Source: Tequatrovirus NIC06P2
DNA length: 64,000 nucleotides
Strand: one strand, 5' to 3'
Sequence record: OZ035760.1
Part shown: positions 39,198 to 41,384 of the stretch, piece after piece
Numbering within the stretch: the first letter of the stretch is position 1
How the letters are laid out: every line of letters starts with the position of its first letter
Notes under the pieces: model-generated
What the model was told of the DNA's origin: nothing
The model's input: the letters and a program-made list of their open reading frames with translations, nothing else
Database searches by the model: none
Program-made: the position numbers and the translations under genes

Positions 39198-39226
39198 TAA
39201 AAAGCCCCAACCTTTCGGTCGGGGCT
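39198..39226 (-). terminator. Rho-independent terminator closing the tRNA/stable-RNA transcription unit
   Basis: AGCCCCGACCGAAAGGUUGGGGCU followed by UUUUUAG on minus strand. Confidence 0.55.
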
Positions 39227-39231
39227 AAGCC

Positions 39232-39540
39232 TTGCGGCAACCTTGTCGGGGTTCCACCTGCTAAGGCAAGTGTTTGTACGAAACGCCGGGATTCGAACCC
39301 GGTTATTAAGCAGTTGACGCTACTCAATATTTTTAAAAGGCCATATCTCGACCATATCCGAACGTTCCGTCAAAAACGCTACTCGGCTTACGGCAAAGAT
39401 ATTTCCTCGAATCGATAATTCGGTGCGCCGTTTCTGCTGTGATGTAAGAGGGCATTAGCAGATCGTAAAGATTTGTTAATGCCAGTCCTTAAACAGGGAA
39501 CATCAGTCCGACGACTTACCGGTAGCGACCCGGTTTCTTG
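39232..39540 (-). ncRNA. Candidate small stable RNA region (T4 has two stable RNAs of unknown function in its tRNA cluster)
   Basis: About 300 nt with no convincing ORF between tRNA-Arg and the terminator; contains a tRNA T-arm-like GGGATTCGAACCC and short hairpins but no complete cloverleaf. Confidence 0.3.
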
Positions 39541-39542
39541 TC

Positions 39543-39619
<77 letters not shown>

Positions 39620-39622
39620 TAG

Positions 39623-40288
39623 TTAAAATTTCATTTTTCGACCTTTAAACCATCCTTCTGGAATTGGGTCAGTTTTCTTAATACGTTTAGAAACTTTTTC
39701 ATCTAATGAATGAATCCACATCATACCAAATTGGGAATTCTTTTCACCTTTTTGGTGATTATTTTTAGCATGAATTTCTTTCATTTTATTAATAGTTTCA
39801 AGAGTATGATGCTTATTTAAAAATCGGCTATTATTTAAAAATTTTTCTTTGTATTCAGGAGTTGACCACAAACGGTTAAATACATTTGAACCATTTTTAC
39901 GATATTTTTCTTGAAGTAAAATATCATTTTTAAAACGTGACTTAAACGATTTAGCTCCTTTTAAACTAGCGTCTTTCTTCTGATTTAGCATCTCAGGAAT
40001 ATTTATATGATCCCATCCACCTTCACCGCCAAGTTTTAAATTATACACATCAGGTCTATTTAAAAACTCTTCTGTGACAATATTTTTCTCGGCTTCAAGC
40101 ATAGATTCTTTATCATCAAAATACTCTAATATTTCTTTAGAAAAATTTTCTATGCCATACTTATCTTGGGCTCTTTTTAATAATTTACCAGAACCCATAT
40201 ATCCATCATCTAAATTTTCGGTAGAATGCACACCAATATAAATTTTATTATTAATTTTATTTGTTATTTTATAAAGATAAAAATGCAT
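39623..40288 (-). CDS. segB: GIY-YIG homing endonuclease SegB-like, embedded in the tRNA cluster
   Basis: MHFYLYKITNKINNKIYIGVHS...GYMGSGK GIY-YIG motif; T4 segB lies in the tRNA cluster; track N-terminal extension overlaps a tRNA so start set at 40288. Confidence 0.7.
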   Translation of the reverse strand: MHFYLYKITNKINNKIYIGVHSTENLDDGYMGSGKLLKRAQDKYGIENFSKEILEYFDDKESMLEAEKNIVTEEFLNRPDVYNLKLGGEGGWDHINIPEMLNQKKDASLKGAKSFKSRFKNDILLQEKYRKNGSNVFNRLWSTPEYKEKFLNNSRFLNKHHTLETINKMKEIHAKNNHQKGEKNSQFGMMWIHSLDEKVSKRIKKTDPIPEGWFKGRKMKF

Positions 40289-40334
40289 ATCAGTCCCTAA
40301 TAAAGAACTGAGCGTCTCACGACGAGTCATAAAT

Positions 40335-40421
40335 TGGTGGGGAGTGGTGGAGTCGAACCACCCGAGTCGCAATGACAATGGATTTACAGTCCACACCGCT
40401 ACCTCTACGGGATAACTCCCC
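40335..40421 (-). tRNA. Class II tRNA with anticodon GUA (tRNA-Tyr-like), 87 nt, CCA encoded
   Basis: Hand-folded: acceptor GGGGAGU/ACUCCCC (7 bp), anticodon stem GUGGA/UCCAU, loop CUGUAAA, long variable arm, T-arm GGUGG-UUCGACU-CCACC; anticodon loop identical to E. coli tRNA-Tyr. Confidence 0.6.
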
Positions 40422-40430
40422 TAATTAATT

Positions 40431-40507
40431 TGGTGACCCAGACCAGATTTGAACTGGTAACCTTTCCCTTATGAGGGGACTGCTGCTAACCATTGAGCTA
40501 CAGGGCC
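40431..40507 (-). tRNA. tRNA with anticodon CAU (T4 tRNA-Ile type, reading AUA after modification; tRNA-Met not excluded)
   Basis: T-arm ACCAG-UUCAAAU-CUGGU, acceptor about 6 of 7 bp, anticodon loop CUCAUAA; CCA encoded. Confidence 0.65.
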
Positions 40508-40508
40508 T

Positions 40509-40584
40509 TGGTGCTGATTGACGGAATCGAACCGCCGACCTTCTCATTACAAGTGAGTTGCTCTACCTACTGAGCTAAATCAGC
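40509..40584 (-). tRNA. tRNA-Thr (UGU)
   Basis: Acceptor GCUGAUU, D-arm GCUC-AGUAGGUA-GAGC, anticodon loop CUUGUAA, T-arm GGCGG-UUCGAUU-CCGUC, CCA encoded. Confidence 0.8.
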
Positions 40585-40586
40585 AA

Positions 40587-40673
40587 CGGAGGCGATAGGA
40601 TTTGAACCTATGAGTCGCCGGAGCGACTGCCGGTTTTCAAGACCGGTGCATTAAACCACTCTGCCACGCCTCC
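40587..40673 (-). tRNA. tRNA-Ser (UGA), class II, CCA not encoded
   Basis: Acceptor GGAGGCG/CGCCUCC, anticodon stem-loop CCGGU-CUUGAAA-ACCGG, long variable arm. Confidence 0.8.
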
Positions 40674-40675
40674 AG

Positions 40676-40749
40676 TCTCCGTGGCAGGATTTGAACCTAC
40701 GACATTCTGCTCCCAAAGCAGACGCTCTACCAAACTGAGCTACACGGAG
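40676..40749 (-). tRNA. tRNA-Pro (UGG), CCA not encoded
   Basis: Acceptor CUCCGUG/CACGGAG, anticodon stem-loop UCUGC-UUUGGGA-GCAGA. Confidence 0.8.
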
Positions 40750-40759
40750 TAAATTAAAT

Positions 40760-40833
<74 letters not shown>

Positions 40834-40838
40834 AAATT

Positions 40839-40925
40839 TGGTGCGAGAAGTGGGACTCGAACCCACAAGGAAATCATTCCGCAGCATTTTAAGTGCTGTG
40901 CCTTTACCAATTTGACCATTCTCGC
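40839..40925 (-). tRNA. tRNA-Leu (UAA), class II
   Basis: Acceptor GCGAGAA, anticodon stem-loop CAGCA-CUUAAAA-UGCUG, T-arm GUGGG-UUCGAGU-CCCAC, CCA encoded. Confidence 0.8.
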
Positions 40926-40926
40926 G

Positions 40927-40999
40927 CTGGGAATAAAGGACTCGAACCTTTGCATCTAGCAGTCAAAGTGCTATGCCTTACCAACTTGGCTAATTCCCA
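40927..40999 (-). tRNA. tRNA-Gln (UUG)
   Basis: Acceptor UGGGAAU/AUUCCCA, anticodon stem-loop UAGCA-CUUUGAC-UGCUA, T-arm AAAGG-UUCGAGU-CCUUU. Confidence 0.8.
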
Positions 41000-41096
41000 A
41001 TTATTAACAAAGGCTCTCAAGCAAGAACCCTTGATGATAGAGGGTATTAATCAGTGCGGTATGAGTTAATAATAACAAATAATTCTTAAAGCATAT

Positions 41097-41384
41097 TTAC
41101 CATTTATGATGATACATACTTACGATGCATTCAAGACCTAAAGGATTCTTGAAAATATCATATTCAAGAGGACCTTTTTCTGTTTCAATAAAGAAATCAA
41201 AATTTACTGTATTAAATTTACGGTCTTCCTTTACTAATTTAACTTGAGAAGATGAACGGTCAATGTAAACCTTTTCAACTTCAAAACATGTTAAAACGCC
41301 ATAATCATCAATCAAGGCTTTAGCTGCTTCTTGATCATATTTATATCCATTTTCAATGGATGATACTTTCGCATAAAGAATCAT
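41097..41384 (-). CDS. Hypothetical protein (95 aa)
   Basis: ORF upstream of tRNA cluster. Confidence 0.5.
   Translation of the reverse strand: MILYAKVSSIENGYKYDQEAAKALIDDYGVLTCFEVEKVYIDRSSSQVKLVKEDRKFNTVNFDFFIETEKGPLEYDIFKNPLGLECIVSMYHHKW

Follow-up and report, generated by a model that had tools for sequence, protein, structure and literature searches.

Phage tRNA genes have long been put down to codon usage, but some are now known to replace host tRNAs that have been destroyed by defence nucleases. The tRNA cluster of Tequatrovirus NIC06P2 raises this choice of roles at a single gene. Within a stretch of 64,000 nucleotides from sequence record OZ035760.1 (the whole of which is referred to here as the window), a tRNA-like gene sits between tRNA-Ile and the homing endonuclease gene segB. 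An earlier note, made from the sequence alone, read it as a class II tRNA-Tyr that may serve counter-defence rather than codon-usage tuning. Is this a genuine tRNA gene, and if so, what would it do for the phage?

The tRNA-Tyr gene and its cluster

ARAGORN called nine tRNA genes in the window, all on the minus strand, in the order Gln, Leu, Gly, Pro, Ser, Thr, Met/Ile(CAT) and Tyr, followed by segB and then by Arg(tct). This agrees with the order in the earlier note, which ran from Gln to Ile with an Arg gene beyond segB, and the additional 87-nt tRNA-Tyr(GUA) that the note had placed between Ile and segB was called at exactly the same coordinates with the anticodon claimed for it (gta). The anticodon loop CUGUAAA and the long variable arm, both named in that note, are present in 40335-40421. 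The features of the locus, by position in the window, are:

39203..39226, minus strand: strong intrinsic-terminator-like hairpin downstream of rnaC, 10 pairs followed by a T run (scan)
39278..39541, minus strand: homologues of rnaD and rnaC (T4 stable RNAs) at the end of the tRNA transcription unit; approximate, transferred from the T4 annotation
39543..39619, minus strand: tRNA-Arg(UCU), an allele unlike those of T4 and T6 (ARAGORN and alignments)
39623..40288, minus strand: segB, free-standing GIY-YIG homing endonuclease, 221 aa, with catalytic residues Y17 and G19 (Pfam GIY-YIG, 26.8 bits)
39703..39711, no strand assigned: downstream microhomology copy, CTAATGAAT when read on the plus strand, within segB towards its 3' end
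40289..40334, minus strand: leader of the segB cassette, 46 nt, with a 9-bp hairpin at 40290-40311 (terminator-like scan; same leader in ESh25)
40335..40421, minus strand: tRNA-Tyr(GUA), class II, 87 nt, CCA encoded (ARAGORN, Rfam RF00005, covariation and T6 match)
40421..40429, no strand assigned: upstream microhomology copy, CTAATTAAT on the plus strand, made up of the first base of tRNA-Tyr and the Ile-Tyr spacer
40431..40507, minus strand: tRNA-Ile(CAU), "Met" according to ARAGORN; identical with that of T4 apart from the encoded CCA
40509..40999, minus strand: six tRNA genes, Thr, Ser, Pro, Gly, Leu and Gln (ARAGORN and Rfam)

By alignment the window is a mosaic Tequatrovirus, with a best match over 24 kb at 97.5% identity and 93% of the query. 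The description of the other eight tRNAs as canonical T4-type genes holds for most of them, since Gln, Leu, Gly, Ser and Ile match their T4 counterparts at 100% identity and Thr at 96%, but it does not hold for Pro (~85%) or for Arg, which is a different allele. The tRNA-Pro gene (40675-40749) is ~85% identical to both the T4 and the T2 genes. The tRNA-Arg(UCU) gene matches that of T2 at 62 of 74 aligned positions and has a T2-like acceptor stem, in contrast to the T4/T6 allele. Its T loop, UUAGAAU, has an A at the expected C56 and its D loop is without the usual GG, yet it still scores 71 bits with Rfam.

Alignment to T4 (AF158101) bears out the statement that T4 itself is without tRNA-Tyr. 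Identity ends just past the discriminator base of tRNA-Ile and returns at about codon 6 of segB, and T4 has just 41 bp between tRNA-Ile and segB, with no tRNA-Tyr at this position. In the window, tRNA-Tyr follows tRNA-Ile after a spacer of 9 nt, and an intact segB lies directly downstream at a distance of 46 nt. The segB gene is ~98% identical to that of T6. The hairpin in its leader stops 1 nt short of the segB ATG at 40288 and might control segB translation. There is also an in-frame ATG at 40328-40330, 4 nt past the tRNA-Tyr CCA, and a mechanical GTG-started ORF (39623-40396) extends into the tRNA-Tyr gene. Further downstream, the rnaD/rnaC region aligns with T4 and T6 at 96% mean column identity.

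Structure, conservation and spread of the tRNA-Tyr lineage

Evidence that the gene is real comes mainly from its homologues, which were taken from T6, T2, an rV5-like phage, two Karamvirus phages, a Phapecoctavirus, FelixO1-like phages, T5 and T5-like phages, Klebsiella phages, a Hafnia phage, two Enterococcus phages and an E. coli plasmid. The acceptor stem consists of 7 bp (GGGGAGU/ACUCCCC), six of which carry compensatory changes among the homologues, and is followed by the discriminator A (A73) and CCA. The anticodon stem has 5 bp, three of them covarying, and closes a 7-nt loop with U33, G34-U35-A36 and A37. The variable arm, UGUCAUUGCGACUCG, is 15 nt long with a 3-bp stem, GUC/GAC, in which two pairs change on both sides in homologues (RNAalifold), and the T loop, UUCGACU, contains the conserved T-loop residues (T54-Psi55-C56 and A58). 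A structural parse of 16 sequences found that the acceptor, anticodon, variable and T stems keep their pairing through compensatory changes, and the RNAalifold consensus of 13 homologues is a cloverleaf. Because 15 of its 24 pairs have changed on both sides among these homologues, the tRNA-Tyr gene at 40335-40421 is real and far beyond a chance match. The gene is under selection.

Single-sequence measures are less favourable. The general tRNA model of Rfam (RF00005) gives tRNA-Tyr 30.3 bits, a small margin over the gathering score of 29, while the other eight tRNAs of the window score 54-73 bits with the same model. The tRNA-Sec model scores higher on tRNA-Tyr (35.4 bits) than RF00005 does, and the minimum-energy fold of the single sequence is not a cloverleaf (z = -1.49). 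The low Rfam score, like the tRNA-OTHER label given to some database copies, is due to an unusual connector between the acceptor and D stems that runs through the whole lineage.

It is here that the earlier description of a textbook cloverleaf has to be amended; it was right that this is a tRNA-Tyr, but the connector has 4 nt (UAUC) rather than the canonical 2 nt (positions 8 and 9). The D stem that fits the homologues is CCGU/GCGG, enclosing the 7-nt D loop AGAGGUA, and with the stem set in this register the loop accommodates the canonical A14, G18-G19 and A21. The stem is invariant but for a C-G to U-A change at pair 2 in T5 and, independently, at pair 1 in SP15. ARAGORN had drawn a different D stem, UCCC/GCGG with a C.C mismatch, which breaks in the majority of homologues, Roth80, KNP2, Zyzzx and Entb_43 among them; it is ruled out by CCGU/GCGG, which is intact in every homologue and compensatory in T5 and SP15. 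Among the 16 parsed homologues the connector measures 4 nt in 13 and 5 nt in the remaining three (the Karamvirus Entb_43, ESCO5 and SP15), and the phage lineage as a whole has D loops of 7-8 nt. By-eye comparison of the parsed homologues found no consistent Watson-Crick pairing by which a longer D stem or an acceptor stem of 9 bp would take up the two extra nucleotides. Acceptor and anticodon stems are separated by 20 nt in all, as they are in E. coli tRNA-Tyr, which gives the impression of a two-base slip in the register of the D stem.

Judged from these alignments, then, the tRNA-Tyr departs from the textbook cloverleaf in having a non-canonical core. Every homologue examined retains the two extra connector nucleotides, whether it comes from Tequatrovirus, Karamvirus, rV5-like, FelixO1-like, T5-like, Phapecoctavirus, Klebsiella or Enterococcus phages or from E. 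coli plasmids. They may define a non-canonical tRNA-Tyr lineage specific to mobile elements, in which the altered core is perhaps adaptive and not a neutral quirk, although we regard this as quite unlikely. If it were true, the altered core could change recognition by tRNA-Tyr-directed nucleases, modification enzymes or TyrRS. The conserved 4-5-nt connector is mentioned neither in the two studies on tRNA-Tyr and PtuAB defences discussed below (PMC11555353, PMC13096335) nor in anything returned by a full-text literature search, and it may be the sole point of possible novelty at this locus. A literature search for earlier surveys of T-even tRNA-Tyr likewise gave nothing specific. According to its annotation, the T5 homologue suppresses amber codons efficiently once its anticodon is swapped, and the 4-nt-connector architecture therefore works in translation. 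By analogy with the T5 and SP15 homologues, the tRNA-Tyr of the window would be charged with tyrosine and used in translation.

The lineage is widespread. Megablast found tRNA-Tyr in 609 phage records at 80-100% identity, 84 of them at ≥99% and at least 40 with an identical gene. Most of the 609 records label it tRNA-Tyr and a few tRNA-OTHER. A more sensitive blastn search recovered the lineage in 1353 records, including T2 at 97.7%, and the T6 genome (AP018814) also carries the gene. In 5426 complete E. coli genomes, blastn detected no chromosomal copy of the phage-type tRNA-Tyr, and plasmid copies at 88-93% identity were found in 269 of them, on plasmids of ~70-120 kb. On the plasmid in NZ_CP024264 the gene is part of an Asn-Tyr-Thr-Ser cluster with a DNA ligase gene nearby, a setting that points to a phage-plasmid. 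The copy in Enterobacter phage KMB17 (Karamvirus) looks decayed, with a mismatched acceptor stem and an altered anticodon loop, and is annotated under a hypothetical protein CDS, not as a tRNA. In unrelated elements (momo, ESCO5, T2 and the NZ_CP024264 plasmid), tRNA-Tyr adjoins tRNA-Asn, tRNA-Asp or both. The tRNAs with GUN anticodons (Tyr, Asn and Asp) are queuosine carriers and targets of colicin E5. This neighbourhood could point to other anticodon nucleases, or simply to AT-rich codon demand. The gene itself is not new; it is annotated in hundreds of genomes, and the tRNA-Tyr of T2L was already named in 2008 (Brok-Volchanskaya et al., NAR, PMC2330249).

A probable counter-defence role and the alternatives

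What such a gene can do for a phage has been studied by one group in two systems (Azam et al., Nat Commun 2024, PMC11555353; Chihara et al., Nat Commun 2026, PMC13096335). The Septu EcB88 PtuAB cuts tRNA-Tyr in its variable arm, at C48/A49 in the E. coli tRNA and at C48 in that of T6 (PMC13096335). The T6 tRNA-Tyr counters Septu by dosage; it is seen on Northern blots, its overexpression restores plating, and deletion of the T6 tRNA region increases sensitivity (PMC13096335). Wild-type T6, with one copy of the gene, has only intermediate resistance, T2 is resistant, and T4, which has segB but no tRNA-Tyr, does not escape (PMC13096335). Escape mutants of T6 amplify tandem 718-bp units through microhomology, a process that requires the nuclease activity of SegB, and each unit comprises tRNA-Tyr and segB without its 28 C-terminal residues (PMC13096335). 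Whether the T6 tRNA acts as a supplement or a decoy was left undecided by the authors (PMC13096335). The report that tRNA-Tyr is the target of a retron effector, to which the earlier note had alluded, concerns retron-Eco7, whose PtuAB depletes host tRNA-Tyr (PMC11555353). Infection is rescued by the tRNA-Tyr of the T5-like phage SP15, and this rescue hinges on promoter strength and an intact anticodon, with a change of anticodon abolishing it (PMC11555353). Purified Ec78 PtuAB left tRNA-Tyr uncut in vitro and nicked DNA (PMC12819146), so the loss of the tRNA may be indirect.

The counter-defence role proposed for the gene in the window is supported by the published experiments on the T6 gene (PMC13096335), which homology connects to this phage. 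The window has the features of the T6-type anti-Septu module, namely a T6-like tRNA-Tyr with the same cleavage site, an intact segB and the microhomology pair. The two microhomology copies are exactly 718 bp apart and match at eight of nine positions (script check), and a junction between them would take off 28 C-terminal residues of SegB (28.0 codons); spacing and loss both equal the published T6 figures. A generic repeat finder did not report the pair, whose longest exact run is just 5 nt, and it was spotted by reading the sequence.

From these observations a mechanism can be proposed. The tRNA-Tyr would probably be transcribed with the cluster and excised from the precursor by host tRNA-processing enzymes. 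Co-transcription is favoured because the gene lies so close to tRNA-Ile and has no promoter-like site directly upstream; a crude consensus scan, limited to sigma-70-type sites, found none on the minus strand over 40294-41235, where the tRNA genes upstream of Tyr lie. As CCA is encoded, CCA addition should be unneeded. The product would enlarge the tRNA-Tyr pool of the cell, which should matter when Septu or the PtuAB of retron-Eco7 depletes host tRNA-Tyr to abort infection. Its variable stem contains the same GUC/A site that Septu cuts in the E. coli and T6 tRNAs. Given this cleavable site, protection would come from dosage, by supplement or decoy, and not from cleavage resistance. One gene copy would be expected to give partial protection. 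Dosage could then be raised if SegB drove tandem amplification of the 718-bp tRNA-Tyr-segB unit through recombination between the microhomology copies at 40421-40429 and 39703-39711.

An alternative is that the gene supplies a tyrosine-rich proteome, giving AT-rich phage genes more translation capacity whether or not a defence system is present. Tyrosine makes up ~2.8% of residues in E. coli proteins. In the 68 long ORFs of the window it accounts for 4.6%, with 77% of its codons TAT, and the window has 34.9% G+C. Many virulent phages also have the lineage within a large set of tRNA genes, beside those for Asn, Asp, Lys and Ile tRNAs, which read AT-rich codons. A tuning of codon choice is excluded, since UAU and UAC are both read by one GUA tRNA. 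However, T4, a close relative, manages without tRNA-Tyr, and the published T6 phenotypes depend on the defence system (PMC13096335). A supply role is plausible and compatible with counter-defence, but as the explanation of the gene we think it unlikely.

It could also be that the gene is passenger DNA, shuffled with other T-even tRNA cassettes by homing-endonuclease traffic and recombination and of no benefit here. The cluster is indeed mosaic, with five tRNAs identical to those of T4, a Tyr gene of T2/T6 type and an Arg gene nearer to that of T2. The Ile-Tyr-segB junction is common to only 23 of the 613 tRNA-holding records; the segment is identical to that of phage UPWr_E4 and ~98% identical to that of T6. 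The segB cassette occupies the exact slot of the T2 tRNA-Asn, and T2 and the window agree both at the left junction, CCAATTT, and where tRNA-Arg begins, CGAGGCATAGCTCA. In T2L, tRNA-Asn is the preferred cleavage site of SegB, with a minor site in tRNA-Tyr (PMC2330249). Given this slot and this preference, the arrangement of T6 and the window looks like the expected product of segB homing into a T2-type cluster, a step that we infer. In Shigella phage ESh25 the same segB cassette with its 46-nt leader stands directly after tRNA-Gly, and Tyr, Asn and Arg follow further downstream (1041-1769 of the examined ESh25 locus), which implies that the cassette moves between tRNA 3' ends within the cluster. 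The SegB motif RAWTSGAAC has 10 matches in the window against 6.2 expected and is not enriched; there are matches in tRNA-Thr, in tRNA-Gly and at a site near rnaC, and none in tRNA-Tyr. The at least 40 identical copies and the 84 at ≥99%, the compensatory stem changes across at least nine phage groups, which imply purifying selection, and the measured phenotype of the T6 gene (PMC13096335) all speak against the passenger account, and we consider it very improbable.

That the gene is a decayed or non-functional tRNA-like pseudogene, as the weak RF00005 score beside the higher tRNA-Sec score, the tRNA-OTHER labels, the single-sequence fold and the decayed KMB17 copy might suggest, is hardly credible when the odd connector is kept throughout the lineage, including in the suppressor-capable tRNA of T5, when the anticodon-loop residues, the T loop (UUCGA), the discriminator A and CCA are preserved and the D loop still fits A14, G18-G19 and A21, and when the T6 tRNA is seen on Northern blots and rescues infection (PMC13096335).

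Overall, and by analogy with T6, we consider it likely that the window encodes a functional phage-lineage tRNA-Tyr(GUA) in the T6 arrangement Ile(CAU), Tyr, segB, Arg, which would feed the tRNA-Tyr pool, give dosage protection against PtuAB defences and be amplifiable by SegB. Both the observation and the counter-defence hypothesis have already been published for T6, where the same gene occupies the same position, and the value of the locus lies in correct annotation, not in discovery. As a natural example of the T6-type module it is a clean one, in which the tRNA-Tyr lies next to a homing endonuclease able to amplify it. The phage is predicted to resist Septu and retron-Eco7 in part and to escape rapidly through 718-bp amplification.

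Comparison with known systems

The closest counterpart is T6 (AP018814), which has the same gene order of Ile(CAU), Tyr, segB and Arg. Of the 87 positions of its tRNA-Tyr, 86 agree with the window, and the two tRNAs have the same variable arm, Septu cleavage site included. Identity is ~98% for segB and its leader, and the microhomology pair is 718 bp apart in both. The window has C41, which makes G31-C41 a Watson-Crick pair, whereas T6 and T2 have U41 (G.U). The window also keeps tRNA-Pro and tRNA-Ser, which are absent from T6, and its tRNA-Arg is a different allele. The tRNA-Tyr of T2 (AP018813), at 97.7% identity, likewise stands after tRNA-Ile/Met, but T2 has no segB, carries tRNA-Asn in the segB slot and has a different tRNA-Ile allele (67% identical).

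E. coli tRNA-Tyr (tyrU, tyrT and tyrV) shares GUA, CUGUAAA, A73, G1-C72 and a long variable arm with a GUC/GAC stem, but just 57 of 83 aligned positions of tyrU match the window. Connector, D stem and D loop measure 2 nt, 3 bp and 11 nt in the E. coli tRNA, against 4 nt, 4 bp and 7 nt in that of the window.

The tRNA-Tyr of T5 agrees with that of the window at 74 of 85 aligned positions and is of the same phage lineage, and the unusual 4-5-nt connector and the D stem recur in T5 and SP15. The role proposed for them is also the same, the replacement of tRNA-Tyr depleted by PtuAB. The SP15 gene has its own strong promoter, in contrast to the gene in the window, which lies inside a polycistronic cluster without a dedicated promoter-like site. 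The variable arm of SP15, CGACUCGGAAGGGUCUCG, has 18 nt with a 5-bp stem and a GGAA loop and differs from that of the window; this 18-nt type occurs in 163 T5-like records (SP15 and 162 others). In the annotated T5 genome (NC_005859), however, the variable arm equals those of the window, T6 and T2. The T5-derived tRNA-Tyr is said to be cleavage-resistant through a distinctive variable loop (PMC13096335), and it seems to be the SP15-type arm, rather than the annotated NC_005859 tRNA, that this description fits. The arm of the window is of the T6 type with an E. coli-like GUC/A stem, which places its tRNA-Tyr with the cleavable type that should protect by dosage.
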